Shown: positions 24,265 to 44,402 of the stretch, piece after piece
How the letters are laid out: each line of letters opens with the position of its first letter
Position numbering within the stretch: position 1 is the stretch's first letter
The notes under the pieces: generated by a model
What the model was told of the DNA's origin: nothing
The model's input: the letters and a program-made list of their open reading frames with translations, nothing else
Databases searched by the model: none
Virus record (IMG/VR): IMGVR_UViG_3300037312_000757
DNA: 64,000 nucleotides
DNA from: a virus
Lineage: Duplodnaviria > Heunggongvirae > Uroviricota > Caudoviricetes
Strand: one strand, 5' to 3'
Made by a program: the position numbers and the translations under genes

Positions 24265-24282
24265 GAGTTAAAGTAGCTGTTA

Positions 24283-25385: not shown

Positions 25386-26275
25386 TGGCAGTTTCAAAAG
25401 GCAATCCAATCACCGCTGCATACTTCAATTCGTTGCAGACGACGCTTGGTAACGTCATGGGTGCCGGTTCCGGAAACTCAGGTTGGGGCCAAACTGTCTC
25501 TAGCGCACAGCTTTCTGTTGGTACACAAATTAAGGCCTCTCATTGGAGCTCCCTTTACACTGATATCAACAAAGCCTGGCAACAGATTTTCGGCGTTAGT
25601 GTACCAGCTGCTTCTTGCCCGGTCATCACTGCTGGTACCGTGATCAGGGCATCTGATATTTCGCTGTATGAAAGCGCAATCACAAACGTCAATACAAACC
25701 GTTTGACAATCGCTGCCGGTAACTGGACAAGCTTTTCAGACCAATATCGTAACACACGTGCTTCAGCATGGGGTGGTGGTGGCAATACTGGTATCACTTG
25801 CACATTCAACGTGACATGGTCATCAGAAGATGCGGCTCGCTATTTTTTCAACAGCGGTGGTTCTGTTGCATTTGCGTTGGTTCACCCAAGCACAGCAACA
25901 ACACAGGATTCAAACTGGAACACCATGTTGACTAACGTTGGTAGTTTGAGTCTAGGTGCTGCTGGTTCCTGGCGTACTGGTACTCTTGGAACACTGAATA
26001 CCGCACTTGGCTATTACGGTTTGACAGGCACAGCAGCATCTTGGTTTACCGGTTCACATATTGGTACCGGTGCTTATGTGAACAACGACGCAACTATCAC
26101 GATGGCGAAGATCACAAATGGTTTCCAAGTGCATATTACTCTGCAGGATGAACACACAAATAGCTTCTATGATTCAGTTCAGGCTGGTACGTATGTTACC
26201 GTTGCTTATGGTAAAGCAACGGCTATTATGAGTGGTATTACATCGCCTGGTATTACGACGGTAACCAACTTCTAA
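25385..26275 (+). CDS. Virion structural/fibre-associated protein
   Basis: Thr/Ser/Gly-rich; GWGQ and ARYFFNSGG motifs; coupled to the fibre gene. Confidence 0.6.
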   Translation: MAVSKGNPITAAYFNSLQTTLGNVMGAGSGNSGWGQTVSSAQLSVGTQIKASHWSSLYTDINKAWQQIFGVSVPAASCPVITAGTVIRASDISLYESAITNVNTNRLTIAAGNWTSFSDQYRNTRASAWGGGGNTGITCTFNVTWSSEDAARYFFNSGGSVAFALVHPSTATTQDSNWNTMLTNVGSLSLGAAGSWRTGTLGTLNTALGYYGLTGTAASWFTGSHIGTGAYVNNDATITMAKITNGFQVHITLQDEHTNSFYDSVQAGTYVTVAYGKATAIMSGITSPGITTVTNF

Positions 26276-26280
26276 TCAAT

Positions 26281-26335
26281 TTGCAATCCTGAAACTCCAC
26301 TTGCTAGAATGGTGTTCATTTTAGAAGTGGAGTTT
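26281..26335 (+). promoter_or_regulatory. Sigma70-like promoter inside a hairpin whose 3' arm contains the RBS
   Basis: TTGCAA-N18-TAGAAT with extended TG; arms AAACTCCACTT/AAGTGGAGTTT. Confidence 0.55.
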
Positions 26336-26339
26336 TCTT

Positions 26340-26687
26340 ATGGATGATAGACTCGAAAAAGCACTTGAACATGGCAACTACAAGGTTACTGTGTTCCAAC
26401 AAAAACAGAATCTCAAGCTTCGCCTTGAGAATCTCCTCACATATGCCCATAACGGTGGCATCTTCAAGGTTTCTCAAGAACTGATTGGTTTCATTGATGC
26501 ATTACTGCGCAAGGAAGTGTCAGAAGTCGTACTCCTCGACTCACGCGAAAACCCAGTTAAGATTGCAAGCCTCCAGGACTTTTATGACGAAGTCCTGAGT
26601 CTGTACTTCGAAGCTACAAATGAATATCATTTGGCATATGAAGAACTACGTAAAGCTCGTAATGTAAAGAAGGCAACCGGTCAATGA
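26340..26687 (+). CDS. Hypothetical protein heading the tailoring-enzyme island
   Basis: ORF with GGAG RBS, coupled to the next gene. Confidence 0.75.
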   Translation: MDDRLEKALEHGNYKVTVFQQKQNLKLRLENLLTYAHNGGIFKVSQELIGFIDALLRKEVSEVVLLDSRENPVKIASLQDFYDEVLSLYFEATNEYHLAYEELRKARNVKKATGQ

Positions 26688-27577
26688 GCAAAGGTTTCCT
26701 AATCTTCGCCCACAACAACGAAGAAGTCGACTACGGTAAGATCGCTGTTTGTTGCAGCTTGATGCTCAAAGCTCACTGCAAGAACAATGACGTCTGCTTG
26801 GTGACCGATCAGGGGACTATTGACTGGTTGAAACAAAGCCTTGGAAGCGATATGGTCAACTATGCGTTCCAGCATGTTCGAGTACTCGACTATAAAGTAG
26901 TCAAAGCCATTCAAGCACAACGGCGCTTCCGTGACTCGATGAGTACTGAGAAGTCACTGACTTGGCTGAACTCAACCAGAAGCTCGGCATACGAAATGTC
27001 TCCATTTGATGAGACAATCATGATCGACAGCGACTTGCTGGTGCAAGACAATTCCTTTGACCTGGTTTGGGGTAATGACGAAGACATTCTCATCAATCGT
27101 GATGTTTTGACTCTCGAATACAAACGACCAGCCATCAATGAGATTCGACTCGATAGCATGGGCATTCCAATGTATTGGGCAACTCAGGTGTATTTCCGTA
27201 AGGGCGATCGAGCAAAGCAACTGTTCGATCTGGTTGATCATATTCGTGAGCGCTACGATTACTATCAATACGTGTACGAGTTTCCTGGCAAACTGTTCCG
27301 TAATGACTACGCATTCAGTATTGCCATTCACATCATGAATGGATTTCTCGAGAACAACGAGATCAAGAGCTTTCCATCAAGCAATATTCTGTCAAGCTTC
27401 GACTGCGATGAGCTTATCGATGTGAAAAAGGGCGCGTTGACATTCTTGGTGAATAGTGCAGAAGAACGCTGGCGTTACACACTGAATAATGTGAAAGGCA
27501 TCACTGTTCACACGATGAACAAATATTCAATCCTCCGTAAGGCAGATGAAATCATTGAGATTTACGGACCAAAGTAA
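26684..27577 (+). CDS. GT-A fold glycosyltransferase-like protein
   Basis: SPFDETIMIDSD DxD motif; FRNDYAFS. Confidence 0.7.
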   Translation: MSKGFLIFAHNNEEVDYGKIAVCCSLMLKAHCKNNDVCLVTDQGTIDWLKQSLGSDMVNYAFQHVRVLDYKVVKAIQAQRRFRDSMSTEKSLTWLNSTRSSAYEMSPFDETIMIDSDLLVQDNSFDLVWGNDEDILINRDVLTLEYKRPAINEIRLDSMGIPMYWATQVYFRKGDRAKQLFDLVDHIRERYDYYQYVYEFPGKLFRNDYAFSIAIHIMNGFLENNEIKSFPSSNILSSFDCDELIDVKKGALTFLVNSAEERWRYTLNNVKGITVHTMNKYSILRKADEIIEIYGPK

Positions 27578-28440
27578 TGACAAGAGAATTTAAACGAGAG
27601 CGTGGCTTCTTTACTTTTGCACAGAATGGTAAGCATGACTATGTCCGCATGGCATATGCTTTGGCTCTAAGCTTGAAAGCTACTCAACAGGAAGTTCCAT
27701 ATCTTGCACTTGGTATCACACCAGGTTACAAGGTTCCTCGTCATTACAAATGGGCATTCGATGAAATCATCGAAATTCCTTGGGGTGATGGTGCTGCAGA
27801 TTCCGAATGGAAGCTGCAAAACGAATGGAAGGCTTATCACATGACACCATATCGTGAGACAATCAAGCTTGACTGCGACATGCTGTTCCTCCAAAACATC
27901 GATAATTGGTGGGAGACACTGTCAACTCAAGAGGTATATGCTGCCACTACCTCATTGACGTTTCGTGGGGAAGTCGTGACTAGCGACTACTACCGAAAGA
28001 CGTTCACCGCAAACAAGCTACCAAACGTCTATACGGCATTCATGTACTTCAAGTACAGTGACTTGGCTCAGGAACTGTTTGAGATGGCCGAGATCATCTA
28101 TTACAACTGGGAGAAGTTCTTCTTCGAGTTTCTCGAAGAGCCACGTCCACACGAAGTATCAACCGACGTTGTGTTCGCTCTGGCTATGCGTCTCATCGGA
28201 CGTGAAGAGGAATGTGTTGGTGTTGGCCAGTTTCCAAACTTTGTCCATATGAAGTCAAAGCTTCAGAATTGGGACGACAATAAAGTATCAGAAGATTGGA
28301 CCAAGCACATTGGTGTTTACTTCACCGATGAACTCGAATTGAAGATTGGTCGTTATCGCCAACTCGCACCTGTGCATTATCATGACAAGGCGTTCCTCAC
28401 TGACGAAATGATCGAGTTGTATGAGGCAAAGTTGAAATGA
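27577..28440 (+). CDS. GT-A fold glycosyltransferase-like protein (paralog of the previous gene)
   Basis: TPYRETIKLDCD DxD motif; FVHMK; HYH. Confidence 0.7.
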   Translation: MTREFKRERGFFTFAQNGKHDYVRMAYALALSLKATQQEVPYLALGITPGYKVPRHYKWAFDEIIEIPWGDGAADSEWKLQNEWKAYHMTPYRETIKLDCDMLFLQNIDNWWETLSTQEVYAATTSLTFRGEVVTSDYYRKTFTANKLPNVYTAFMYFKYSDLAQELFEMAEIIYYNWEKFFFEFLEEPRPHEVSTDVVFALAMRLIGREEECVGVGQFPNFVHMKSKLQNWDDNKVSEDWTKHIGVYFTDELELKIGRYRQLAPVHYHDKAFLTDEMIELYEAKLK

Positions 28441-29354
28441 GAAAGTTTTACGCGCACTTCGATCACGAAACTGGAAAGATTTTCTCTGTCGGTCCTGTAG
28501 CGGATAACGATGTTTATCCTGATGCAGAATATATGGAAATGGATGAGGAAACGGCAATGAAGTTTCTTCGCCATGAACGTAGCATGATGGACTGGTTCAT
28601 AGACAAGAGCGGTGATAAGCATATCCTGGTCCAAAACTATCTGAATGTGCCACCAGAGAATCCAGGTGTATTGTTCGAAGTCCCGAGGCTCGGCAAAGTA
28701 GTCCTTCAAGGCATTCAAATCAAGCTGTCAGTTCCAGATGACATCATAGAATTTTCAATCCCCGAACGTAGTAAGGGACAACAACTTGATGCTATCAAGG
28801 AAAAAACGATGACGTTTGTTCTAACCAAACGTAACGATCCCACCTATGTGGTTGGTGAATTTGTTGTGTCGATCTCTGAATTGATAGCGAAGGGTCGATT
28901 GATGTTTCCCACAACTTGTGACCTCAATGATTATTCGCTGTTCACCAAACGAGTGTTCTTGAACTACCAATTCGAAGTATCACACAGCGGACGTGGCATG
29001 TCATTCCGCAGTGATACCATGAAGATCAACAAGATGGTGTCATACACTTCTAAGCCAGTAAAGAAAGGCATTGTTGCTTCATATGATGAAGATACGCATA
29101 CATTGAACTTTAATCTGGTTGGTAAGACAAAACTGTGGTGGCCAGACAATGCTATGTGTCCAGTATTCCTGACAAAGCCACGTGACCCCACAATCGTCTA
29201 CCACAAACTAATGATCGACGTCGAATCATTTTGGGAAAACAAGAAGATTAGTTTACAATTACCGAAAGACATACATAGTGAATTTGGCTTGGCTGGATAT
29301 CCGCTTGCCGACACTATGGCATTCGTAAGAGTAAACAATGACACAAGTTCGTGA
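28437..29354 (+). CDS. Hypothetical protein with an internal duplication
   Basis: FVLTKRNDPT and VFLTKPRDPT repeated motif; operonic coupling. Confidence 0.7.
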   Translation: MRKFYAHFDHETGKIFSVGPVADNDVYPDAEYMEMDEETAMKFLRHERSMMDWFIDKSGDKHILVQNYLNVPPENPGVLFEVPRLGKVVLQGIQIKLSVPDDIIEFSIPERSKGQQLDAIKEKTMTFVLTKRNDPTYVVGEFVVSISELIAKGRLMFPTTCDLNDYSLFTKRVFLNYQFEVSHSGRGMSFRSDTMKINKMVSYTSKPVKKGIVASYDEDTHTLNFNLVGKTKLWWPDNAMCPVFLTKPRDPTIVYHKLMIDVESFWENKKISLQLPKDIHSEFGLAGYPLADTMAFVRVNNDTSS

Positions 29355-30258
29355 CATCACAGAATTTGATATTTTCTTCCTCAGTTATGATGAGCCCAAT
29401 GCCGAGAAGCATTGGGCCGACCTTTTGGAAAAATGCCCTTGGGCTAAACGAGTCCACGGGGTCAAAGGGTTTGACAGCGCTCACCGCGCGTGTGCCGAAC
29501 AAAGCGAAACAGATTGGTTCGTCACAGTAGACGCGGACAATATAGTCCATACAGATTTCTTCGACCAGAAGGTCACACTCCATCCAGAACAGGACATCAA
29601 CAAAAGCTTCAGCTGGAATGCACTCAATGGCATGAACGGCTTGATGTACGGCAACGGTGGCTTGAAGCTGTGGTCAAAACAGTTCGTGTTGAACATGAAC
29701 ACCCACGAAAATAGCGACGATCCGCGCAAAGCTGTCGACTTCTGTTGGGAAGAAGACTATCTACACCTACATAAAACATTCAGCACCGTATGGAATAACG
29801 GTAGCCCATACCAAGCATGGCGTGTTGGCTTCCGAGAGGCAGTAAAGCTTTCACTGGATCAGGGTAAACGTGTTCCTGCTGACAAGATGAAAACCACATT
29901 ACATGACGTCAACCTGCGAAATCTCCGTATCTGGGCTTGCGTGGGTGCAGATGTTGAGTACGGCAAATGGGCCATGTATGGCACTCGCTTCGGTCTTATG
30001 CAGATGATCAAGCCACACTGGGATTATACCGATATTCGCGACTATGATTGGTTTGATAATATGTGGGAAATCTCGATGAGAGAACAATTCGAGGTTAAGA
30101 AGACAACTACTGGCTGGTCATATGACGAAGTATTCCTTGATCGTAATATTCTTGAATGTGGTGAGTGGATCGAAAGTCAAACCAAGATTCTGCTTCCTGT
30201 GCTAGACGCAAAAGCAAGCGATTTCTTCCGAGAAAGCTTCAAACTACGAAATGACTGA
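29338..30258 (+). CDS. GT-A fold glycosyltransferase-like protein
   Basis: FLSYDEPNAE, RVHGVKG, VTVDADN (DxD), YGNGGLKL, AWRVGFRE. Confidence 0.7.
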   Translation: MTQVRDITEFDIFFLSYDEPNAEKHWADLLEKCPWAKRVHGVKGFDSAHRACAEQSETDWFVTVDADNIVHTDFFDQKVTLHPEQDINKSFSWNALNGMNGLMYGNGGLKLWSKQFVLNMNTHENSDDPRKAVDFCWEEDYLHLHKTFSTVWNNGSPYQAWRVGFREAVKLSLDQGKRVPADKMKTTLHDVNLRNLRIWACVGADVEYGKWAMYGTRFGLMQMIKPHWDYTDIRDYDWFDNMWEISMREQFEVKKTTTGWSYDEVFLDRNILECGEWIESQTKILLPVLDAKASDFFRESFKLRND

Positions 30259-31663
30259 CAAATCACCTAATCAAATCAACATGGAGAATATGTTGAAGCG
30301 GATGGATGAGGTCGAATCATCATCTGGTTCAAAATCCATGTGTCTGGCGAAGTGGCTGCAGAGCACTGTTTATCTTATGAACGGCCATACACATTCATGC
30401 CACCACCCATCAGTTCATAAGATTCCTATTAGTGAGATTAAACGCAAACCTTCTGCTCTTCACAACACAGAACACAAGATGAAAGTTCGTGAAGAGATGC
30501 TTGCTGGCCAACGCCCGAAGGAATGCCAATATTGTTGGAATGTCGAGGATCTTCCAGGTAAACACATCAGCGATCGCACATACAAAAGTGCTGACGTTGA
30601 GTGGGCGCATCCACACCTAAACACCGTCATTGCAAGCGGTAATGGTTCGGACATTGCTCCTACCTATCTAGAGGTTGCATTTGAGAACACTTGCAACTTC
30701 AAATGCATGTATTGCACACCAGATATTTCCAGTAAATGGATGGAAGAGATTGAGCGCCATGGTGCCTATCCAACAAGTTACAATCTTGGTTCTATCCAAT
30801 GGCTGAAGCAGATTGATAAGATGCCAATCCCACGTAAGGAAGAGAATCCATACGTTGATGCTTTCTGGCAATGGTGGCCTGAGCTCTACAAGAGTCTCAA
30901 CACATTCCGTATCACTGGTGGTGAGCCATTACTGTCAAAGAACACTTGGCTTGTACTTGAATATATCAAGGCAAACCCTCGCAAAGACTTCACGTTGGCT
31001 ATCAACACAAACATGCAGGTCCCTGATGATCTGATTGATAAGTTGATCTCCTATTACAAGGGTATTGCTCCTCATATCAAGTCATTCGATGTCTATACGA
31101 GCTGCGAGGCTCATGGCAAACAAGCTGACTATATCAGATACGGTATGGACTATGACAAGTTCATGAGCAACTGCCGTCGGTTCCTGTCCGAGACTGATGC
31201 TCGTCTGAATTTTATGGTAACATTCAATGCATTGAGCGTAACCACATTTACAGAATTCCTGAAAGACATCTGGCAGATGCGTGTCGATTTTAACGAGAAT
31301 GACGCGATGAATCGTATACCAATGATGATTTCTTATCTTCGTTGGCCGCAATTCCAAGACGTTAGAATCTTGCCAGAATCTGTCAAGCGACCGTTCGCAG
31401 AGAAAGTCAAAGCATTCGTTCAAGCGCATACTCGAAATACTAGCCCCGATCGTGCTGGTCGTTTTTACTTGGAAGAAATTGATCAAGTAGAACGTCTTTG
31501 TGAGTATATGTTCGAACCACTCGATGCTGACTATCTCAAACGCCAATACGATGATTTTGGTGCTTTCTTCGGCGAATATGACGAACGTCGCAATGTCAGT
31601 TTTGATGATCTGTTTCCAGAATTATCCGATTTCTACACCTTTTGCTTAGAACAAAATGGCTAA
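30251..31663 (+). CDS. Radical SAM enzyme with an N-terminal twitch domain
   Basis: CNFKCMYC and TGGEP; N-terminal CLAKW...SCHHP...ECQYCW. Confidence 0.9.
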   Translation: MTDKSPNQINMENMLKRMDEVESSSGSKSMCLAKWLQSTVYLMNGHTHSCHHPSVHKIPISEIKRKPSALHNTEHKMKVREEMLAGQRPKECQYCWNVEDLPGKHISDRTYKSADVEWAHPHLNTVIASGNGSDIAPTYLEVAFENTCNFKCMYCTPDISSKWMEEIERHGAYPTSYNLGSIQWLKQIDKMPIPRKEENPYVDAFWQWWPELYKSLNTFRITGGEPLLSKNTWLVLEYIKANPRKDFTLAINTNMQVPDDLIDKLISYYKGIAPHIKSFDVYTSCEAHGKQADYIRYGMDYDKFMSNCRRFLSETDARLNFMVTFNALSVTTFTEFLKDIWQMRVDFNENDAMNRIPMMISYLRWPQFQDVRILPESVKRPFAEKVKAFVQAHTRNTSPDRAGRFYLEEIDQVERLCEYMFEPLDADYLKRQYDDFGAFFGEYDERRNVSFDDLFPELSDFYTFCLEQNG

Positions 31664-33176
31664 AAAGAACAACGAATCATATCAAGAATACCGAGATCGA
31701 GTTGTTAATCCCATCTCGCCAAGTTTTTGTGGTGCAAAGTGGTACAATGCAACTATCTGGCTGGGTAGTGGTACAACCGCATCATGTCATCACCCACCAG
31801 CACACAAGATTCCACTTGAAGAAGTGAAGCGTTCAATCAAGGCAATTCACAATACCGAATACAAGAAGGCAGTCCGTGAACAGATGCTGCGCGGTGAACA
31901 ACCAGCAGAATGCGATTACTGCTGGAAGATTGAAGGGCTAGGTCAAGACAAAGTATCAGATCGTGTATTCAAGTCAGTAATCTATACCGACGAAGAATTG
32001 AAAGAAGCCAAGGAAAAACTTGGTAGCTCAGCTGATGTTGATCTCAAGACACTTGAGATCGCATTTGACGCCAACTGCAACTTTGCTTGCTCATACTGCA
32101 ATCCATCATTCAGCACCACTTGGATGAAGGATGTTCGTACTAATGGTCCATATCAGAATCTTGTATCAGATGGTGGTGGTGCTTTCCAACAGGACGGTTC
32201 GTGGGCAATGCCTTATGGCCCCAAGAACGAGAATAACCCATATGTTGAAGCATTCATGCAATGGTGGGAAAGTGATCTTCAACACTCACTGCGTGAACTG
32301 CGCATCACTGGTGGTGAAGGGACAATGAGCCCTGACTTCTGGCGATTGATGGATTGGTGGAAGGAACATCCAGAATGCAAGGTTAGTCTGGCTGTCAACA
32401 CTAACCTAGGTGCAAAACAAGAACTGATCGAACGACTTTGTGAAACCTCACATAGCTTCCAAGACTTCCATCTTTACACGAGCAATGAAGCATTTGGCGC
32501 TCATGCCGAATATATTCGTGATGGTCTCGTTTGGGAGACATGGATGAGCAATCTTCGCATGATGCTTGAGAAGGGCAACTGCAAGGGCGTTCACGTTATG
32601 ATGACTATCAATAGTTTGGCCCTGTTCAGCATCACCGAGTTCATGGATGAAATGCTAAAACTGCGTGCAGAGTTTGGCAAACATGCATGCATGATGTCAT
32701 TCAATATCTTGCGCTTCCCAAGCTTCCAGGCAGCCGTTACGCTTCCGCAAGACATCAAGGAAGGCATCGCTGACAACCTGACTAACTGGCTGTCCAAGCA
32801 ATCTCTGATGCATCAGTGGGAGATCGATGGATTGCAACGCTTGATTGCTTATCTGCGTGAAGTTCAGGAAGGCCACAGCAACACATCAAGCTTGGAAAGC
32901 CGCATGCGCGATTTCAAGAGTTTCTTTGCTCAATACGATAAACGTCGTGGCAAGGATTTCAAGTCAACATTCCCGCAACTTGCTGACTGGTACGATAACA
33001 TCCCGGACACTAATGTCCAGCCAATCAAGTTCTTCAAGAACGGTGACGCAACGGAGGGTTGGAGTTATGTCAAGGAACTCAAGGAACGCGCCAACAAAGA
33101 AGGCTGGATTCTCACACCGTCAAATGTGAATCCTGGTGCACAAGGTTACGAACCACCTAAAGAAGGCATGGATTAA
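31656..33176 (+). CDS. Radical SAM enzyme with an N-terminal twitch domain
   Basis: CNFACSYC and TGGEG; FCGAKW...SCHHP...ECDYCW. Confidence 0.9.
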   Translation: MAKKNNESYQEYRDRVVNPISPSFCGAKWYNATIWLGSGTTASCHHPPAHKIPLEEVKRSIKAIHNTEYKKAVREQMLRGEQPAECDYCWKIEGLGQDKVSDRVFKSVIYTDEELKEAKEKLGSSADVDLKTLEIAFDANCNFACSYCNPSFSTTWMKDVRTNGPYQNLVSDGGGAFQQDGSWAMPYGPKNENNPYVEAFMQWWESDLQHSLRELRITGGEGTMSPDFWRLMDWWKEHPECKVSLAVNTNLGAKQELIERLCETSHSFQDFHLYTSNEAFGAHAEYIRDGLVWETWMSNLRMMLEKGNCKGVHVMMTINSLALFSITEFMDEMLKLRAEFGKHACMMSFNILRFPSFQAAVTLPQDIKEGIADNLTNWLSKQSLMHQWEIDGLQRLIAYLREVQEGHSNTSSLESRMRDFKSFFAQYDKRRGKDFKSTFPQLADWYDNIPDTNVQPIKFFKNGDATEGWSYVKELKERANKEGWILTPSNVNPGAQGYEPPKEGMD

Positions 33177-33215
33177 CTACTAAGATAAATTAGAGATATA
33201 ACCACCATATCTCTA

Positions 33216-34508
33216 ATGATCGACAAAGCCAAAGTCTCCCAACTCGTAAAGTCTAAAAACTTTTGCGCAGTTCCCTGGATGCACCTCCACGTAATCAACG
33301 ATGGGCGTGCATTCCCTTGCTGTCAAACTCCAATCGAAGACGAAAATTCACTCGGTAACGTTAAGGAACAACACGTTATCGAGATCGTCAATTCTGCAAA
33401 ATACAAAGAGATGCGCAAGAACATGCTGGAGGATCTACCTCTACCTGCTTCGTGCGAACGTTGCACTAAGAAGGAAGATGCAGGTATCAATACCATGCGT
33501 AAAGGTATGAATGATCAATGGGTCAATCTCAACGAAAACTTTATCGCAGAAACCGCAGAAGATGGCTCAATACCAGAAGCACGTCTGCAATATTGGGACT
33601 TCCGATTCAGCAACTACTGTAACCTGGCTTGCCGCACATGCAGTCCCTTGTTCAGCACCAGCTGGCATTCTGATTCATTCAAATTGCACAAAGTTCATAT
33701 GAATGGATCCAAAGCATTGATTGATTTGAAAGACGCTGACATCTTTTGGGAAGATCTTGAAGGTCAGATCAAGCATCTTTCAGTCATTCAATTTGCTGGT
33801 GGCGAACCAGTCATAATGGAAGAGCATTGGAAGCTCATCAAGATGCTCGAAGCACAGAACAAAACCAACGTAAGTCTCCGGTACTCAACCAACGCAACCA
33901 AGCTGTCATACAAAGGCATGAACATGCTTGATGTATGGAAAAAGTTTAGCCACGTACACCTGAGTCTGAGCATTGACGGAGTAGGGCCACATTTCGATTA
34001 CATTCGTCATCGTGGCGTATGGGAAGAAGTAAAGCAAAACTTGCTGGCAATTCGGGCAACCAAGATGATCGATTATTGGATGCATCCCACAATCAGCATT
34101 CTTAATATCTTCCATATCACAGATATGCACAAGGAACTTTTCGATTTAGATCTCATTCCAAATGCCGAACTGTATCCTGGCAATCCATTTTTGCCAGAAG
34201 CATACTTCATTCATCGTTTCCATTTGAATCCGCTATTCACACCAGAATCGCATAGTATCAAGGCGCTACCAAAAGAACTGAAAGAGTTAGCGACTGAAAA
34301 ACTGCTAACGTACGGTGGAATGATGAACATACAACACGGTATTCCCATGAGTGGATGGAAAAGCTTGGTTGACTTCATGTGGGCGAGTGATGATTCACAC
34401 TTGTTCCAAGATTTCATAGAACACACAAAGAAACTTGACGAACTGCGTGGGCAAGATTTCACGCAGTTGGATCCTATTTTGGCACCATATTTCAAATGCA
34501 TGAAGTAA
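33216..34508 (+). CDS. Radical SAM enzyme with an N-terminal twitch domain
   Basis: CNLACRTC and AGGEP; FCAVPW...PCC...SCERC. Confidence 0.9.
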   Translation: MIDKAKVSQLVKSKNFCAVPWMHLHVINDGRAFPCCQTPIEDENSLGNVKEQHVIEIVNSAKYKEMRKNMLEDLPLPASCERCTKKEDAGINTMRKGMNDQWVNLNENFIAETAEDGSIPEARLQYWDFRFSNYCNLACRTCSPLFSTSWHSDSFKLHKVHMNGSKALIDLKDADIFWEDLEGQIKHLSVIQFAGGEPVIMEEHWKLIKMLEAQNKTNVSLRYSTNATKLSYKGMNMLDVWKKFSHVHLSLSIDGVGPHFDYIRHRGVWEEVKQNLLAIRATKMIDYWMHPTISILNIFHITDMHKELFDLDLIPNAELYPGNPFLPEAYFIHRFHLNPLFTPESHSIKALPKELKELATEKLLTYGGMMNIQHGIPMSGWKSLVDFMWASDDSHLFQDFIEHTKKLDELRGQDFTQLDPILAPYFKCMK

Positions 34509-35401
34509 ATCCTAAACTTATTATGCCATGGTCTGTGAAGACTATGGAAGAATTGAAAACACGACTAGAGTACGATACCAGCCGCAATAATTTTGGCAAA
34601 GGTGAATACCCAGGCGTCGTTCAATATCTGTCTGATGCCGAGCGCGATAACTCAAAACGTGCAATCGCTTCTGGTTTCACACACTACAAAGAAAACGATG
34701 TTTCATACCAAATCAATAGTTTGGGATTCCGCGGTGACTGGGAACTAGAAGACTTTGTAGAAGACGACACCTTCAAGCTGTTGGTTATGGGCTGTAGTTT
34801 CACACTGGGCGAAGGACTAGCTTATGATGATATGTGGTCAGTCATATTGGCCAAACGTCTAGAGACCTTTTTGGGTAAGAAAGTAAAGCTGGCAAACACT
34901 GCATTGTGTGGAGCAAGCCTAAATAATCAAACCCGCTTGTTTTCGATGATTTCCGATCATGCAAAGTTTGACATGGCTATTATGTTGGCACCACATGTTG
35001 GAAGACATGAATACGTGGTAAAATCCCGTCAACTTGATCAGCCATTTCCAGTTGCATTGGTTCCAAACTTCAAGCATATGAACGCTGGCCCAGCTTACGA
35101 TCATTTCTATAAGTTTGCTACAGAAGAATATTTGTATTACGACTACCTGCGTTCCATTGAACATCTGAAGCATATTGCTGATGCAAAGAGGATGCCGCTC
35201 CTAGTGGGTAGTTGGGATCCAACCGCTACTAATCTAATGATTGAAGGGTCATCTTTTGATCCATTACCAATTTTCTATATTTGGGAAAATATCAAGGGTG
35301 AACACAAACATAGAATGGCTCGAGATGGAAACCACCCTGGTCCATTCAGCAACAGTCATTATGTTGATCAAATATGGAATAGGGTAATCAGTCTGTTATG
35401 A
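34496..35401 (+). CDS. SGNH/GDSL-like hydrolase or acyltransferase
   Basis: NSLGFRG, GCSFTLG (block I) and RDGNHPG (DxxH). Confidence 0.7.
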   Translation: MHEVNPKLIMPWSVKTMEELKTRLEYDTSRNNFGKGEYPGVVQYLSDAERDNSKRAIASGFTHYKENDVSYQINSLGFRGDWELEDFVEDDTFKLLVMGCSFTLGEGLAYDDMWSVILAKRLETFLGKKVKLANTALCGASLNNQTRLFSMISDHAKFDMAIMLAPHVGRHEYVVKSRQLDQPFPVALVPNFKHMNAGPAYDHFYKFATEEYLYYDYLRSIEHLKHIADAKRMPLLVGSWDPTATNLMIEGSSFDPLPIFYIWENIKGEHKHRMARDGNHPGPFSNSHYVDQIWNRVISLL

Positions 35402-36015
35402 TAGATTTGAATAAATTCGTGCCAGTGCCATGGACATGCCCAGGCTTCATGCTCGGTAGCGACATTCTAAGTCTAGATCTCCTGCAGTCAATCAATGATT
35501 TCGACTTTTCACTGAGCACACCAGTGTTGCAGTTTAAGCGACGTAGTGTTACCTGCGATCTATTTGATTTCACTCCATCAGGCAAACAACTGATGGATAA
35601 GGTTGGTGATTTGGTTTCATATCTAAATGACGCAGATATTTTGGAATACCTGGTGGTGAAAAGTTTTGAAGGATGTGAGCTTCCATTAAATCGATTTTGG
35701 GCTAATGGAATCGACGCGATTAAACGAGTGCATTCTGGAATGGTTGTGCAACTTACAGAAGACACTATTGGATTCAAGATGTCACCACATGTAGATCACC
35801 GTGAAGTCATTGCCAACATGCAACTCTATCTGGGGCCAAACGGATACGATGTGGGTACCACATTCCATAAAGCAAACAACTGGGACATCACAAAGAAAGT
35901 ACCTTTTGCCACAAACACCGGGTACTTTTGTGTCAATACCGAACAAAGCATTCATAGTGTGACTGTGGATCAAGATATCACACGAAGATCACTCATTATT
36001 AGTTGGACATTATAG
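35398..36015 (+). CDS. 2OG-Fe(II) oxygenase-like protein
   Basis: HVD...H...R motif: PHVD, GTTF, SIHSV, RRSL. Confidence 0.65.
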   Translation: MIDLNKFVPVPWTCPGFMLGSDILSLDLLQSINDFDFSLSTPVLQFKRRSVTCDLFDFTPSGKQLMDKVGDLVSYLNDADILEYLVVKSFEGCELPLNRFWANGIDAIKRVHSGMVVQLTEDTIGFKMSPHVDHREVIANMQLYLGPNGYDVGTTFHKANNWDITKKVPFATNTGYFCVNTEQSIHSVTVDQDITRRSLIISWTL

Positions 36016-36023
36016 GATTAACC

Positions 36024-36128
36024 ATGTGGAATTTTATTAAAGGATTGGTCGAAAAGATCAAAAATGAAATCGCCTACCGCAAACGCATGAAGGCATTAAA
36101 ACGTAAAGATCCATTCATCTACAAATAA
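36024..36128 (+). CDS. 34-aa basic peptide ending DPFIYK (not in ORF track)
   Basis: MWNFIKGLVEKIKNEIAYRKRMKALKRKDPFIYK; AGGA RBS; fills the gap between neighbouring genes. Confidence 0.75.
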   Translation: MWNFIKGLVEKIKNEIAYRKRMKALKRKDPFIYK

Positions 36129-36130
36129 TC

Positions 36131-36962
36131 ATGTATGTTCAGTTCGACGTAATGTCTTTGTGGAACGAAGGTAGAATCGTTCCTCTAATAAACCAAACAA
36201 TGCAGTGGATGCCAAGCGATTCAAAAGAAAACTATAAAGAATCTGGTAACCTCTATACACCCGAATCGTTCGATTATCAATTCAACGATTGGGGATATCG
36301 ATGCGATAGCTTTGCTGGTCCAGAGCAATATCCCTTCAGAGTGTTGTTCATTGGATGCTCATACACTATGGGCATCGGTCTTCCACAGGAAGAAACCTGG
36401 GCCTATAAAACTCTAAAGTCATTGCGTACTCATTACCAACAAGATATCCCATATTGGAACATAGGTTTCGGAGGAGTAGGCACAGATTTCAACGCTAGAA
36501 TGGCTTCAATGGTTATCCCCCACTTGAAACCCAACTTGGTATTGTTTCTTGCACCATCAATGAGTAGAAGAGAAATCATAGAAGAACAAACCCACTTCAA
36601 TGCAATCCCACCAGAATTCATGAATGGCATGAAAACACCTTTTAAACACACGCATTGGCTTCTTCTCCGATGAAGCCAATGCGTACAACTTTATTAAGAA
36701 TATGGTAATGGTAGATGCTCTCACCAAAACCTATGGCGGATCACTCAAATGGATGTCACATCTGGCTTACGAAAAACAACAAGAAGACCAAATACATTCA
36801 ATCCTACCACAATCATTGATTGACAACAAACTTAAATTCAATGTCTTCAAAGCAAATACATTCCCATTCATCGACAAAGCTAGAGACAAAATGCATTCAG
36901 GCCCCAAATCTCATGATCTTTACCATGAACTACTATGGGATGAGTTAAAACATATCCTGTAA
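36131..36962 (+). pseudogene. Second SGNH-like gene split by a +1 frameshift near 36630-36670 (or a sequencing error)
   Basis: GCSYTMG lies in ORF 36131-36673; RDKMHSGP lies in the +1 frame (36702-36962); removing one base at ATGAAAACACCTTTT gives a full-length paralog of 34496-35401. Confidence 0.75.
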
Positions 36963-36991
36963 AAAGAGCCACCATTATGGTGGCTCTTTTT
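36961..36991 (+). terminator. Intrinsic terminator
   Basis: AAAAAGAGCCACCA-TTA-TGGTGGCTCTTTTT. Confidence 0.85.
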
Positions 36992-37132
36992 CATTCGATT
37001 ATCAGCTAAACAACATAATTACCACCATTATAGATGGCAGCAATGACCAATATCTACAACACATCACGGAATTAAACCACTCTATAACCCATTGGTGATT
37101 CCTCCATTAACATCATACTCATCAAACCATCA

Positions 37133-37380
37133 TCACGAATATATCATGGAGGTTCAACGAACTAACTCCTGATAGCTACTAAACCCAGAGAGAACTCCCC
37201 AAATTCCTCACGAAGAACTCATGGAGGTTATCCATGGCATATCTTACCATACCCAGAACCCAGAGAGAAGTCACCATTTCCTCTCCATGAAACCATTTCT
37301 TCACGAATAATTCAATGAGGTAGTCAATCGTGTCAGGGTCTAGGACCCTTCATGGACGACATCAAACCCAGGCAGATCTC
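37133..37380 (+). repeat. Alternating two-motif repeat, locus 2 (3 units)
   Basis: TCACGAA..(TCATGGAGGTT) at 37133, 37208, 37301 (degenerate); (A)AACCCAG(AG/GC)AGA at 37181, 37257, 37364. Confidence 0.85.
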
Positions 37381-37392
37381 TTCATTTTTCCA

Positions 37393-37399
37393 ATAAATA
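37393..37399 (+). promoter_or_regulatory. T4-like late promoter
   Basis: ATAAATA upstream of the carbamoyltransferase. Confidence 0.55.
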
Positions 37400-37423
37400 T
37401 TTGGTTACATAATGGGGGTTCAA

Positions 37424-38896
37424 ATGAAATACCTTGGTATTGTCTCTATGGGACATGATGCATCCGTAGCTCTGGTAGATGGCTACGAAATCCTCTTTGC
37501 TGGACATGCAGAGCGTTATAGCCGTACGAAGAATGACGGTGAAATCAATGCCGCCCTCCTCAAGGACGCATTGAAGTATGGCACTCCGGATCAGATTGTC
37601 TGGTATGAACGCCCTATGTTGAAACGTAGTCGTCAACTCTTCGCCGGTCAATACCAGGAAGTATTCAAGACTCCCTCAATCCGTCAACACCTGAACTCGG
37701 TGGGTATTGGACAATTACCCATCAACATCGTGTCACATCACGAGAGTCATGCTGCGGCTGGCTATTTTACAAGTCCCTTCACAGATGCCTCTATTCTCGT
37801 TTGTGATGCCATCGGAGAGTGGACGTGTATCAGCATCTGGGAGGCGCATGGTGGCTCTTTACGTCAAGTCTGGAAGCAATCCTACCCCCACTCCTTGGGT
37901 CTATTTTACTCGGCCATCACACAACGTTGTGGCTTGAAGCCCAATGAGGAGGAGTTCATTCTCATGGGTATGGCTGCTCTGGGTCAACCAAAGTATGTTG
38001 CCGACCTGAAGAAGGACTTCATCGCATCCGAGCGTGGACCTGACTTTAAGTTGAATACTAACCTCCATCGAGGAATGCTCTGGTGGCGTCCTGATCTGCA
38101 AACCGAACAGGATTACTATGACTTAGCTGCATCTGCTCAGGTTATTGTTGAGGAGTATCTGGAGCAGACTCTGGCATGGATGGCAAAAACTCTTCCATCA
38201 CGTAACTTGGTCATGATGGGCGGCGTTGCATTGAACTGTGTTGCAAATGCAAAGTTGGCAGCACTAGGCATCTATGATGACATCTGGATTATGCCAAACC
38301 CGGGCGATGCCGGTTCATGTATCGGCGCAGTAGCCGCTCATACGAAAAGCCATCTGATGTGGGAATCACCATACTTGGGATACAACATCAAGCGTGAGTT
38401 TGACTTCGAAGGCGCAATGCAAGTATTGCTGAAGGGCGAACCAATTGGTGTCGCTAATGGCCGTGCCGAGTTTGGTCCTCGTGCATTGGGTAATCGTAGT
38501 CTCATTTGTGACCCTCGTGGTCCTAATGTCAAGGACATGATCAACCAGATCAAGAAGCGTGAGCCATTCCGTCCTTTTGCACCAATCATCATGGAACACT
38601 TGGCACATGAATATTTCGATATGCCAGTGAATACTTCACCATACATGCAATTTGTGGCTAACTGCAAGTTCCCAGATCAGTTCCCAGCGATCTGTCACTT
38701 CGACAATACTAGCCGCGTGCAGACGTTGAACAGTGAACAGAATCCAGTCTTCTATGAGTTGCTCGAGCGCTTCTATCAAGCGACTGGATGTCCTATGCTG
38801 CTGAACACGAGTCTGAACATCAAGGGTGAACCATTGGTGAACACATGGCTTGATGCTGTGGGTTTCCGCAACATGTATGGTGTGCAGGTTTTCTAA
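37424..38896 (+). CDS. NodU/CmcH/TobZ-family O-carbamoyltransferase
   Basis: HDASVA, HHESHAA, GGVALNC, PGDAG, EFGPRALGNRS, KREPFRPFAP, LNTSLN; likely start ATG 37424 after GGGGG. Confidence 0.93.
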   Translation: MKYLGIVSMGHDASVALVDGYEILFAGHAERYSRTKNDGEINAALLKDALKYGTPDQIVWYERPMLKRSRQLFAGQYQEVFKTPSIRQHLNSVGIGQLPINIVSHHESHAAAGYFTSPFTDASILVCDAIGEWTCISIWEAHGGSLRQVWKQSYPHSLGLFYSAITQRCGLKPNEEEFILMGMAALGQPKYVADLKKDFIASERGPDFKLNTNLHRGMLWWRPDLQTEQDYYDLAASAQVIVEEYLEQTLAWMAKTLPSRNLVMMGGVALNCVANAKLAALGIYDDIWIMPNPGDAGSCIGAVAAHTKSHLMWESPYLGYNIKREFDFEGAMQVLLKGEPIGVANGRAEFGPRALGNRSLICDPRGPNVKDMINQIKKREPFRPFAPIIMEHLAHEYFDMPVNTSPYMQFVANCKFPDQFPAICHFDNTSRVQTLNSEQNPVFYELLERFYQATGCPMLLNTSLNIKGEPLVNTWLDAVGFRNMYGVQVF

Positions 38897-38951
38897 ATTG
38901 CTCAGATAGACGGCAACTTGTACCATAGTGTAACTTCATTATGGTACGAAA

Positions 38952-39626
38952 ATGGCATATGATCTTTTCTTCCTGAGCTACAATGAGCCGCATGCTGAAG
39001 AAAACTGGCTGCGATTCAAAGCTCGTTTCCAACACGCAAAGCGCGTTGATGGTGTCGATGGCATCTTCAATGCGCATCGCGAATGCGCCAAGCGTTCACT
39101 GACAACACATTTCTTCGTTGTTGACGCAGACAACGAAATCCTCGACTTTGACTTCAAGTTCACAGTTTCACCATACGAAAAAGATTACGTTCACTTGTGG
39201 TATGCTCGCAATCCAGTGAACGGTCTGGAATATGGCTGGGGCGGATTGAAACTCTTCCCGAAAAAACTCGTTCTTCAAACAGAAAAAGTCGGTGTCGATA
39301 TGACAACGAGTTTTCCATTGAAGATCATTCCTGAAGTCGTTTCGATAACGAACTTCAATACATCCGCGTTTGACACATGGCGTAGCGCTTTCCGTGAGGG
39401 TGTGAAACTGTCAAACGATAGTTCAGAAGAAGCAGTACAACGTCTTAACGGCTGGCATAGTACATCACACTCGGCATATTCTGCATATGCCCTTCATGGT
39501 GTTGTTTCCGCTAGGGAATTTCTGAGGGAAGGCGGTGACCCTGCTTTGATCAATGACTGGGTATGGTTGCGTGAACAGTTCGACAAAACATTTACAGAAG
39601 ACGGCAAAATTAGATGGATGAATTAA
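38952..39626 (+). CDS. GT-A glycosyltransferase-like protein (paralog of 29338-30258)
   Basis: FLSYNEP, VVDADN, YGWGGLKL, WRSAFRE. Confidence 0.7.
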   Translation: MAYDLFFLSYNEPHAEENWLRFKARFQHAKRVDGVDGIFNAHRECAKRSLTTHFFVVDADNEILDFDFKFTVSPYEKDYVHLWYARNPVNGLEYGWGGLKLFPKKLVLQTEKVGVDMTTSFPLKIIPEVVSITNFNTSAFDTWRSAFREGVKLSNDSSEEAVQRLNGWHSTSHSAYSAYALHGVVSAREFLREGGDPALINDWVWLREQFDKTFTEDGKIRWMN

Positions 39627-40426
39627 ACGAAACAATGCATTACGTGCATCAAATCATGATGGGCTTGGAAGAGCTGGCAAACGGCCGAAATAAGTCAATG
39701 ATTCCCGATGTGTATCACCAAGTGTACGGTGACAACTACCATGACATTCGTCTGGTATTGGACAAGCATGATGTACTCCCGCCAGGAACACTAGCCAATA
39801 TCCGTCATGCAATCTTCAAGTACCCAGAGCAAAACTGGAAAGATGCTCTTAGCAAGTATCAGATCAAGAGCAAGCGTTGGTTGGTTCATGAGCTCTCAGA
39901 ACACGTTGGTAACTCGTTTGATCAGATCTATGTCCTGGGTGGTTGGCTAGGTGTTCTTCCATTCCTTCTTCGTAGTGAAGGTATGATCATTAACCAGATT
40001 TTCAACTTCGACATTGACGAAGGGGTGCTGGAACCATCATGTTTCATCAACCATTACTACGAATCGCAAAAGCCAATGTCGTATCTGGCGCGCAAGCTTG
40101 ACGCGTACAAGCTGAATTATGAAGATGACAAGATTCTCATCGATCCACACAATCCGCAAGGAGATACTATCGACGGCAAGCCAGATCTGATCATCAACAC
40201 GATCTGTGAGCACTTGAGTGATTACCATAACTGGGTCCAACGTATTCCGTTTGGCGTTCCGGTGGTACTACAGAGCAACAACATGTTTGGTATTGATGAT
40301 CATGTGAACTGCGTGGGCTCATTGGAAGAGTTTGTGGCCGAATGCCAATTGAGCGATATTCAATTCTCGGGGACTCTTGACCTCGGGGACACGTGGAAAC
40401 GCTTCATGATCATCGGCGAACGCTAA
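39614..40426 (+). CDS. Class I SAM-dependent methyltransferase-like protein
   Basis: VLGGWLG (motif I), NFDID (motif II), DLIINTICEH. Confidence 0.55.
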   Translation: MDELNETMHYVHQIMMGLEELANGRNKSMIPDVYHQVYGDNYHDIRLVLDKHDVLPPGTLANIRHAIFKYPEQNWKDALSKYQIKSKRWLVHELSEHVGNSFDQIYVLGGWLGVLPFLLRSEGMIINQIFNFDIDEGVLEPSCFINHYYESQKPMSYLARKLDAYKLNYEDDKILIDPHNPQGDTIDGKPDLIINTICEHLSDYHNWVQRIPFGVPVVLQSNNMFGIDDHVNCVGSLEEFVAECQLSDIQFSGTLDLGDTWKRFMIIGER

Positions 40427-40444: not shown

Positions 40445-40468
40445 GATGGCGGGCATACGCCCGCCATC
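40445..40468 (+). terminator. Hairpin, probable terminator
   Basis: GATGGCGGGC-ATAC-GCCCGCCATC. Confidence 0.6.
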
Positions 40469-40490
40469 GTTCATTTCGACAATTTGTTCA

Positions 40491-40498
40491 TATAAATA
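40491..40498 (+). promoter_or_regulatory. T4 consensus late promoter
   Basis: Exact TATAAATA upstream of the tail fibre gene. Confidence 0.75.
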
Positions 40499-43884: not shown

Positions 43885-44402
43885 AGTTTTCTGTCCATTA
43901 TTTCATATGTGACGTCGAAGTCCTGGCCCTTAGATACGTGAGTAAAGAACGGCGGGTTGAAGTTCGTGGTATCGAGCGAAAGGAAGCAGTCCCCTTCGAA
44001 CGATTTGCCTATACGAGTGACGTATAGACGTTCTGCCAGCTTGGCAAACTGAGTATATACCTGGGCACCACCTATGATCATGATCTCTTGGTGGTCTGGG
44101 AAACGCGTCCTAAGACATTCAATGATTTCCTCAGGAGTGCCAGTTGCCAAGTAGTCGGCCACTTCTGACAGATCACTCTCGTAGAACTCGCGAGGTGTTT
44201 TGGATGTCATCACGACATTCACACGATTCGGAAGTGGTTTCTTCGGCAAGCTGTGCCATGTGTTAGACCCCATCAGAACGATTTTGTCCTTGGTGTGAGT
44301 CTTGAACCACTTCATATCTTCTGAGATTCGTGGCCAAGGAAGTTCGTTGTCCTTGCCAATACAGCCATTCTCAGCAATGGCTACAATCATTGAAATTATC
44401 AT
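43881..44402 (-). CDS. folA: Dihydrofolate reductase
   Basis: IGKDNELPW, PLPNRVNVV, IIGGAQVY. Confidence 0.95.
   Translation of the reverse strand: MIISMIVAIAENGCIGKDNELPWPRISEDMKWFKTHTKDKIVLMGSNTWHSLPKKPLPNRVNVVMTSKTPREFYESDLSEVADYLATGTPEEIIECLRTRFPDHQEIMIIGGAQVYTQFAKLAERLYVTRIGKSFEGDCFLSLDTTNFNPPFFTHVSKGQDFDVTYEIMDRKL

Follow-up and report, generated by a model that had tools for sequence, protein, structure and literature searches.

What is made by a run of 15 co-oriented genes that lies between two tail fiber genes of a soil virus, and on what does the product sit? The genes (g1 to g15, positions 26340 to 40426, all on the plus strand by the map of open reading frames [ORFs]) belong to IMG/VR virus record IMGVR_UViG_3300037312_000757, a genome of 523,836 bp with direct terminal repeats, of which a stretch of 64,000 nucleotides (the window) was analyzed. 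An earlier note, made from the letters of this stretch, had proposed a phage pathway that builds and decorates an unusual glycan on virion proteins. We find that the island is a mosaic inside the tail fiber module of a jumbo myophage and that it probably encodes a cytoplasmic pathway for the assembly and editing of a glycan. A protein of the virion's fiber module is the best single reading of what this pathway acts on, held at a confidence that falls a little short of even. The argument is carried by what was computed: the enzyme families, the intact motifs, the position, the proteins' solubility, and the late-type promoter before the g13-to-g15 unit.

An enzyme island in the tail fiber module

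The ORF map and the fiber domains of the flanking genes g00 and g16, which have an N-terminal anchor domain in common, agree with the earlier reading of about 15 co-oriented, mostly overlapping genes between two fiber genes (Table 1). Adjoining genes overlap by 1 to 17 nucleotides (nt) or are separated by 2 to 55 nt, with the single exception of a 449-nt gap (36963 to 37411), and the GC content of the island (0.42 to 0.46) is like that of the remaining window and genome. Baseplate genes and a gene for a giant protein of 3,586 amino acids (aa) lie upstream. The protein encoded by g0, directly 5' of the core (g1 to g5) in every locus with enough flank, had no match in Pfam, PHROG, or NCBIfam and is a candidate acceptor or fiber accessory protein.

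The glycosyltransferase core

The glycosyltransferases of the earlier note are two GT8/glycogenin-like proteins (g2 and g3) and two proteins with a GT-A fold (g5 and g14), as judged by family profile, DxD motif, and AlphaFold2 (AF2) fold. g2 and g3 are weak paralogues of each other, and neither matched a Pfam or NCBIfam model as a single sequence. The profile of their family (22 sequences), searched against the PDB, matched glycogenin-1 and glycogenin-2 with E values of 6.5e-8 to 1.6e-6, covering only about 100 N-terminal residues; it matched only glycogenin-type GT8 enzymes and no GT8 structure from lipopolysaccharide (LPS) synthesis. The aspartates of the DxD motif (D99 and D101) and a distal histidine (H267) are invariant in the 22 sequences. 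Glycogenin-type GT8 enzymes are protein-priming enzymes.

For g5, the AF2 model (predicted local distance difference test score [pLDDT] 92.7) has its GT-A domain at residues 4 to 192, and the first-ranked Foldseek match is the PBCV-1 capsid glycosyltransferase A64R (E = 4e-4). VIA-align gave Z scores of 8.5 to 10.1 to B4GALNT1, an LgtB-type galactosyltransferase, SunS/ThuS, A64R, and STIV A197, and Mimivirus R699 was also matched. Because nucleotidyltransferases of the same fold score a Z of about 9 against g5, fold alone does not fix its activity. PDB sequence searches with the single g5 sequence and with a g5 profile gave nothing meaningful, and the curated GT2 models recognized neither g5 nor g14 (PF13704 scored 17.3 bits, below its cut-off of 27.5, and PF00535 had no match at the locus). 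In the g5/g14 alignment the VDxDN motif, with D65 and D67, is invariant. Clustered at 50% identity, the g5-type domain family comprises 1,728 clusters, of which 808 reach an E value of 1e-30 or better, and in four scanned proteins of about 735 to 750 aa an EryCIII/UDPGT/MurG-type GT-B transferase is fused N-terminally to such a domain (six more proteins of like length and domain position lay outside the scan). Fusion to GT-B transferases argues for a role of the g5 type in glycan assembly.

The two remaining core proteins are of a different kind. Pfam and NCBIfam searches gave no family match for g1, which is not recognizable as an enzyme. For g4, Foldseek returned only generic Ig/FN3-type proteins and uncharacterized phage proteins at low template modeling (TM) scores, and its alignment has few invariant residues and no catalytic signature; on its predicted model, g4 is apparently nonenzymatic and may be an adaptor, a carrier, or a structural protein.

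Radical SAM and other tailoring enzymes

The three twitch radical S-adenosylmethionine (SAM) enzymes of the earlier note, g6, g7, and g8, turned out to be full-length members of NF033640 (N_Twi_rSAM), matching model positions 1 to 398 at about twice the curated cut-off of 170 bits (338, 324, and 368 bits). Their cluster motifs are intact (CNFKCMYC, CNFACSYC, and CNLACRTC, of the form CX3CX2C, plus GGE), and among the cysteines of the twitch domain C36, C80, and C83 are invariant and C17 is nearly so. Secondary NCBIfam matches of g8 include PapB, the anaerobic sulfatase maturase, and similar families. A literature search for NF033640, for radical SAM enzymes with an N-terminal twitch domain, or for similar phage islands found no paper naming the family or assigning a product. 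N_Twi_rSAM genes were found at 76 distinct loci in many bacterial phyla, a few of these being mis-binned phage contigs, and often stand in tandem. Their co-oriented neighbors at loci of the genome collection include tandem radical SAM genes (14 of 74 loci) and GT2 transferases (5 of 74), together with TPR proteins, acyl-carrier/ketosynthase proteins, and g9-like SGNH proteins; one locus of this sample (L074) is phage DNA. As a side observation, a metagenome-assembled genome (MAG) of Elusimicrobia, CAIRTQ01 (L043 to L075), has N_Twi_rSAM genes spread over more than 15 contigs, commonly with 2 to 6 copies per locus, a very large expansion.

The SGNH protein, the oxygenase, the carbamoyltransferase, and the methyltransferase that the earlier note had also named are upheld, the oxygenase as a probable member of its class and the methyltransferase with moderate support. 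As a single sequence, g9 matched nothing in Pfam or the PDB, and a search for homologous proteins gave one relative only. A profile of 12 relatives, taken from loci already collected, matched SGNH esterases in the PDB at an E value of 4.7e-12, and the catalytic residues are invariant in the family (S101, G105/G139, N134, and H280). Against the DUF6071 protein found at the bacterial loci described below, BLASTP with g9 was not significant (E = 0.17). As a correction to the earlier note, g11 and g12 make up a single SGNH gene, a paralogue of g9 that a frameshift near 36633 to 36673 has broken in two; the second frame is open from 36633, and the C-terminal piece retains DxxH. The break seems real, because contigs of two metagenome runs have no indel there, and its sequence would fit either a real pseudogene or a gene in need of a recoding event.

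The probable oxygenase g10 has no Pfam match at an E value of 0.01 or better, and its HVD motif and a distal histidine are visible in the sequence. ESM Atlas placed it with 2-oxoglutarate (2OG)-Fe(II) oxygenase clusters (2OG-FeII_Oxy_3/prolyl-4-hydroxylase [P4H]) by features (0.93 to 0.95) and by structure (TM score, 0.75 to 0.81). Among the loci compared, it is unique to the present genome. For the methyltransferase-like g15, searches of Pfam, NCBIfam, and the PDB gave no sequence match. The Atlas structure matched a class-I methyltransferase cluster (TM score, 0.75/0.90), and a VLGGWLG motif stands in the sequence; by features, none of the 30 closest clusters has a Pfam family, and the nearest one that does (0.95) has Methyltransf_31 on 21% of its members.

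The carbamoyltransferase g13 has both domains of its family, Carbam_trans_N (158.3 bits, E = 1e-46) and Carbam_trans_C (180.1 bits, E = 1e-53), and matches phrog_1601 (E = 6e-100) and the structures of NovN (E = 1.7e-60), GdmN, and TobZ (E = 7e-44) in the PDB. It scored 154.4 bits against the NodU equivalog cut-off of 1000 and is thus a member of the family and not a NodU orthologue. We also noticed a 34-aa ORF that the earlier note had overlooked. It has no Pfam or NCBIfam match and no transmembrane segment, and homologues stand directly 5' of a carbamoyltransferase gene at three other phage loci (L016:14793-14897, L063:13616-13711, and L074:14366-14461). A longer ORF ending in DPFIYR (about 5603 to 5820) precedes the carbamoyltransferase on L082, a contig labeled gammaproteobacterial; further homologues occur in L056, L023, and L024, where the DNA examined gave no carbamoyltransferase match. 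This distribution marks the ORF as a predicted conserved small partner of the carbamoyltransferase. At the bacterial loci that combine radical SAM and carbamoyltransferase genes (L036 and L082), Pfam annotation found unrelated neighbors except for a DUF6071 protein.

Transcription units

The co-orientation and overlaps noted earlier hold, but the block consists of at least two transcription units, with a boundary marked by a terminator (36965 to 36990), the gap of 449 nt, and, at 37392, a late-promoter motif. Across the genome, 27 of 38 copies of [AT]ATAAATA lie at most 60 nt 5' of an ORF on the same strand, where 6.4% would be expected by position (an enrichment of about 11-fold). Because of this enrichment the motif looks functional, apparently as a T4-type late promoter, and a gp55-type late sigma factor is encoded at 1272 to 2156. 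All five copies in the window (2262, 8828, 24282, 37392, and 40491) precede plus-strand genes, four of the structural module and the fifth that of the carbamoyltransferase; the motif thus stands before g13 and both fiber genes. The hairpin just 5' of g1 is a candidate terminator, attenuator, or promoter region. It has 19 to 20 bp, its 3' arm holds the probable GGAG ribosome-binding site of g1, and it could control whether the core is translated or transcribed.

Relatives of the island

The order fiber-g0-g1-g2-g3-(g4)-g5 is kept wherever the flank is long enough, in 15 IMG/VR loci as well as in contigs assigned to bacterial MAGs. The core recurs at over 20 loci of uncultured phages and also occurs in the cultured Ralstonia phage RsoM2USA. 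Megablast found no record matching the island among 50,697 phage records; the protein search of the phage records found the core only in RsoM2USA and distant radical SAM proteins in two Vibrio phages. RsoM2USA has orthologues of nine island genes. Its ORF354 to ORF347 correspond to g1, g2, g3, the g4 slot, g5, g6, g14, and g15, with the fiber-side order running from ORF355 to ORF350, and a second locus about 90 kb away holds ORF202 (g7 type) and ORF199 (carbamoyltransferase). Two proteins adjoining the core, ORF361 and ORF356, were identified as virion proteins by mass spectrometry (PMC8504454).

Gene content behind the core is mosaic, even where g1 to g3 and g5 are 73 to 92% identical. The number of radical SAM genes varies from 0 to at least 5, and carbamoyltransferase, methyltransferase, and SGNH genes are present or absent. 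Further genes of sister islands encode UDP-glucose/GDP-mannose dehydrogenases, SufBD/SufC/SufE, a radical SAM protein of the B12-binding type, and DUF6071 proteins. In L023 and other sister islands, genes for SufBD, a SufC-like protein, SufE, and an alternative oxidase stand beside many radical SAM genes, a gene content which suggests that the phages provide for Fe-S supply themselves.

Several of the MAG-filed contigs with the core also have fiber homologues and look like phage DNA. The MAG contigs concerned are L063 and L074 (Haliscomenobacter, 148 and 183 kb) and L044, L047, L056, L079, and L081 (marine TMED/MED); each of two Haliscomenobacter contigs encodes a baseplate wedge homologue, and one holds the core. 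Such contigs are probably jumbo-phage DNA binned with bacteria, and the hint that they give of a host is weak at best. A paper on the "moraphage" lineage (PMC12619734) was checked and set aside.

Table 1. Features of the island and its borders, with window coordinates
Feature	Coordinates	Strand	Assignment	Basis and remarks
g00	24318..25385	+	Tail fiber with C-terminal intramolecular-chaperone (IMC)-like domain	Peptidase_G2/IMC-like and tail-fiber PHROGs; preceded by late-promoter motif AATAAATA at 24282
g0	25385..26275	+	296 aa, Ser/Thr/Gly/Ala-rich	Sequence, synteny
Hairpin 5' of g1	26290..26336	+	Strong hairpin followed by UUUUCUU, just 5' of the g1 ATG	-25.7 kcal/mol, z -5.3; overlaps sigma-70-like TTGCAA-N18-TAGAAT
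g1	26340..26687	+	115 aa, first gene of the core, conserved	Homologues in 14+ loci and RsoM2USA ORF354
g2	26684..27577	+	GT8/glycogenin-like GT-A glycosyltransferase, DSD motif	Family profile; paralogue of g3
g3	27577..28440	+	GT8/glycogenin-like GT-A glycosyltransferase, DCD motif	Family profile; 51% identity to RsoM2USA ORF352
g4	28437..29354	+	Tandem Ig/FN3-like beta-sandwich domains, variable	AF2 (pLDDT 72.7, predicted TM score 0.48); Foldseek
g5	29338..30258	+	GT-A-fold glycosyltransferase of unnamed family, VDADN motif, C-terminal helical domain	AF2, Foldseek, VIA
g6	30251..31663	+	N-twitch radical SAM enzyme	NF033640, 337.9 bits; CX3CX2C, GGE; semi-core, after g5 in many relatives
g7	31656..33176	+	N-twitch radical SAM enzyme	NF033640, 323.9 bits; 55% identity to RsoM2USA ORF202
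g8	33216..34508	+	N-twitch radical SAM enzyme, N-terminal SPASM/twitch residues 17-84	NF033640, 368.2 bits; Pfam SPASM, Radical_SAM
g9	34496..35401	+	SGNH/GDSL-type hydrolase or enzyme acting on acyl groups; block I in a GCS form	Family profile
g10	35398..36015	+	2OG-Fe(II) oxygenase, prolyl-4-hydroxylase-like, HVD...H	ESM Atlas
34-aa ORF	36024..36128	+	Small ORF ending in DPFIYK	Sequence, conservation
g11/g12	36131..36962 (g11 36131-36673, g12 36702-36962)	+	Second SGNH protein, paralogue of g9, frameshifted	g11 versus g9, E = 2e-17
Terminator	36965..36990	+	Intrinsic terminator at the end of the g1-g12 unit	-21.7 kcal/mol, z -7.3, then U-tract
Late-promoter-like motif	37392..37399	+	T4-type AATAAATA, 12 nt 5' of the g13 ATG	
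g13	37412..38896	+	NodU/CmcH/TobZ-family O-carbamoyltransferase, 494 aa	Pfam N and C domains
g14	38952..39626	+	Short g5 paralogue, GT-A domain only	BLASTP versus g5, E = 4e-31; alignment
g15	39614..40426	+	Class-I SAM-dependent methyltransferase-like	ESM Atlas
Elements ahead of g16	40445..40498	+	Hairpin (40445-40468), then TATAAATA at 40491-40498	
g16	40529..42304	+	Tail fiber with Peptidase_S74 chaperone domain; downstream boundary of the island	Peptidase_S74 and tail-fiber PHROGs

Proposed product and target of the pathway

The part of the earlier proposal that concerned a glycan-building and -decorating pathway stands, on the evidence of the enzyme families, the four glycosyltransferase-type proteins, the GT-B fusions, and the sugar dehydrogenases of sister islands. 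The virion target is consistent with these data, and it is above all this target that we infer, along with the order of the steps and the sugar nature of the radical SAM substrates. Because no gene for nucleoside diphosphate (NDP)-sugar synthesis lies in the island and no sugar nucleotidyltransferase is encoded in the genome, host NDP-sugars are the presumed donors. With them, g1, g2/g3, g4, and g5 would start and extend a short sugar chain on a protein inherited with the island, that is, g0, g4, or a neighboring fiber, and g14 would add a further sugar. The radical SAM enzymes g6 to g8 would then abstract hydrogen from sugar carbons, leading to oxidation, epimerization, deoxygenation, or C-C chemistry; BtrN and AprD4 do such radical chemistry on aminoglycoside sugars. 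Hydroxylation by g10, addition or removal of an O-acyl group by the SGNH enzyme, O-carbamoylation of a hydroxyl by g13 with the 34-aa partner, and methylation by g15 might complete the product. Far from the island, a stand-alone NAD-dependent epimerase/dehydratase (GDP-mannose-dehydratase-like, 360 aa) is encoded at G000:C1:258476-264371 (L109), with a NUDIX protein and a nicotinamide phosphoribosyltransferase as neighbors.

A virion protein is favored as the target because the linkage to fiber genes, the late-type promoter, the solubility of the proteins, and the lack of a hydroxymethylase point that way together. No protein of the cluster has a transmembrane segment, and there is no flippase or polymerase. 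The best structural match of g5, a capsid glycosyltransferase (A64R of PBCV-1), adds support for a link to the virion, as do the virion proteins ORF361 and ORF356 beside the core of RsoM2USA and the match of the g2/g3 profile to protein-priming GT8 enzymes. A fuller version of this proposal is more tentative, and we regard it as rather doubtful: that the fibers of jumbo phages of Gram-negative bacteria carry a new virion glycan, edited by N-twitch radical SAM enzymes after transfer and O-carbamoylated with the aid of a micropeptide, with mosaic tailoring that diversifies the chemistry of the phage surface.

Several points weigh against a virion target. Neither glycan nor acceptor has been observed for any member of this group of islands. 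GT-A and GT8 enzymes serve lipid-linked or free acceptors equally well. We know of no characterized member of NF033640, and the families that rank next to it in the search are peptide maturases. No late motif stands directly before the g1-g12 unit, which is preceded by the strong hairpin with only a sigma-70-like site inside it, so the unit may or may not be a late one. Fiber linkage is not obligatory for the tailoring genes, since ORF202 and ORF199 of RsoM2USA lie about 90 kb from the core. Similar islands have also been read by their published authors as modifiers of the host O-chain or capsule.

Remodeling of the host envelope is accordingly the first alternative to weigh. The pathway would alter the LPS O-chain, the capsule, or another surface glycan on cytoplasmic lipid-linked precursors, which would block superinfection or prevent the adhesion of progeny to debris. 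LPS synthesis commonly involves GT8 enzymes, the hypervariable gene content resembles that of O-antigen loci, the latent period of RsoM2USA (270 min) leaves time for a surface change, and such remodeling is the published view for the GT8/radical-SAM islands of pelagimyophages (PMC7029224) and for jumbo-cyanophage clusters (PMC7824862). However, neither a membrane component nor a flippase, a polymerase, or an initiating phosphoglycosyl transferase is encoded in the island. A late-type promoter precedes the carbamoyltransferase unit, the core goes with fiber genes and not with early or auxiliary regions, and the profile of g2/g3 matched glycogenin and no LPS GT8 structure. We therefore consider envelope remodeling unlikely, while placing it ahead of the alternatives that follow.

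Less probable again is direct modification of a protein or peptide, in which the radical SAM enzymes, the oxygenase, and the carbamoyltransferase would act on side chains of a fiber, of the 3,586-aa protein, or of a peptide like those that are ribosomally synthesized and post-translationally modified, and the glycosyltransferases would serve separately. SPASM/twitch enzymes are often peptide or protein maturases, the secondary matches of g8 (PapB and the anaerobic sulfatase maturase) are of this kind, g10 is prolyl-hydroxylase-like, and small ORFs are present. But no RRE-type peptide-recognition domain or precursor-like peptide adjoins the radical SAM genes, the 34-aa ORF tracks the carbamoyltransferase and not the radical SAM genes, and these vary from 0 to at least 5 copies behind the same glycosyltransferase core, as would be expected for optional tailoring; the nucleotide-sugar dehydrogenases of sister islands speak against it as well.

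A soluble glycosylated small molecule, an aminoglycoside-like or nucleoside-like metabolite made during infection, seems slightly more improbable still. The closest solved relatives of g13, TobZ, NovN, and GdmN, tailor antibiotics, twitch enzymes of the BtrN and AprD4 types act in aminoglycoside pathways, and Iyer et al. suggest a secondary metabolite for the carbamoyltransferase clusters of cyanophages (PMC7824862). On the other hand, the island has no scaffold-forming enzyme, aminotransferase, or exporter, and its core is strictly linked to fiber genes.

Hypermodification of phage DNA, by which decorated bases would evade restriction, ranks last and is very improbable: phage glycosyltransferases classically glucosylate hydroxymethylated bases, and pathways of thymidine hypermodification include radical SAM enzymes and oxygenases, but the single thymidylate-synthase-family gene of the 524-kb genome is a true ThyA (NF002497, 349.6 bits, cut-off 327) beside a dihydrofolate reductase (DHFR) gene, so that a dCMP/dUMP hydroxymethylase and with it the usual route to hydroxymethyl bases are absent, g10 resembles P4H-type oxygenases with no TET/JBP match, the island, with its late-type promoter, is part of the late structural module, and no DNA-binding or nucleotide-kinase partner accompanies it.

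The phage and its populations

By its gene content, the virus is a jumbo myophage of soil whose core is of the T4 type. Genes are present for a gp55-like late sigma factor, an SbcD-like nuclease, the hub and wedge of the baseplate, an RNA ligase, thymidylate synthase, and DHFR. The baseplate wedge protein shares 42 to 43% identity with its counterparts in Agrobacterium phage Atu_ph07 and Sinorhizobium phage Phosso and 36 to 38% with those in RaK2-like phages, which places the phage, as far as sequence likeness goes, in the Atu_ph07/RaK2-like jumbo group. The thymidylate synthase gene (42859 to 43884, minus strand, 341 aa) adjoins that of DHFR (43881 to 44402); family models match its protein in two or three stretches (6 to 192 and 233 to 341), which suggests an insertion of about 40 residues.

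Two runs of rhizosphere metagenomes, each from a different study, contain the stretch. Its word depth is about 1,700 in the first, which may be the sample that gave the record, and about 12,000 in the second. One contig of run X2 represents a population variant with 22 different letters between 37228 and 37177, within the repeat-bearing 449-nt gap, and a low-depth contig of the same run skips 139 nt within g15 (40137 to 40277). The very high depth and the fragmented contigs of this run point to several co-existing strains.

Significance and comparison with known systems

Three abundant families with no known reaction or product meet in this island: the N-twitch radical SAM enzymes, the g5-type transferases, and the partner peptide of the carbamoyltransferase. 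If the proposal of a new glycan is true, it would provide the first reaction for the N-twitch radical SAM family, which has thousands of proteins. If the product sits on the virion, phage glycosylation, as it exists in mycobacteriophages and algal viruses, would also include jumbo phages whose hosts are Gram-negative soil bacteria, with a bearing on host recognition and on the use of phages against plant pathogens. Since RsoM2USA has nine orthologues, it is a cultured model in which the product can be sought directly.

The earlier claim of an undescribed biochemical system goes too far, as fiber-linked GT8/radical-SAM islands have already been described (PMC7029224). The island belongs to a described but biochemically uncharacterized kind. 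A close precedent is the host recognition cluster (HRC) of pelagimyophages and cyanomyophages, a fiber-linked hypervariable island with GT8 and radical-SAM cassettes that has been read as a modifier of the host O-chain (Zaragoza-Solas et al. 2020, PMC7029224). Like the HRC, the present island is hypervariable, lies in a T4-type structural module, combines tail fibers with GT8 and radical SAM genes, and has cassettes that differ between close relatives. In contrast, HRC phages infect marine SAR11 or cyanobacterial hosts and have far smaller genomes, and a carbamoyltransferase, an SGNH protein, a peptide partner, and a conserved g1-to-g5 core are not described there.

The polymorphic clusters of jumbo cyanophages, with glycosyltransferases and carbamoyltransferases, were interpreted by Iyer et al. 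(2021, PMC7824862) as modifying the capsule or making a metabolite. They share with our island the paralogous glycosyltransferases, carbamoyltransferases, 2OG-Fe oxygenases, and methylases in large myophages. They also have NDP-sugar synthesis enzymes, a halogenase, and HAD phosphatases, and radical SAM enzymes are not mentioned, whereas the present island has three N-twitch radical SAM enzymes and no sugar-activation enzyme.

At the level of single enzymes, g13 has the same two-domain architecture (Kae1-like and YrdC-like) as TobZ, NovN, GdmN, and NodU, but it has 494 aa where these have 570 to 700 aa, and a small ORF with a PFIY-type end adjoins it. This small partner may be related to SxtK/DUF5989; unlike SxtK-like partners, the 34-aa peptide has no transmembrane segment and no Pfam match. 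The NF033640 members g6 to g8 have an N-terminal auxiliary-cluster domain, whereas that domain is C-terminal in the characterized twitch enzymes BtrN, MoaA, and AprD4.

Virion glycosylation, as in PBCV-1 with A64R, in giant-virus fibrils, and in the capsid and tail tube of mycobacteriophages, is a known process like the one proposed here. To our knowledge, radical SAM, carbamoyltransferase, or SGNH enzymes do not occur in these systems, and the sequence identity of A64R-type proteins to g5 is only 10 to 15%. What they have in common with the proposed pathway is the cytoplasmic glycosylation of structural proteins by soluble viral GT-A enzymes, with NDP-sugars taken from the host.

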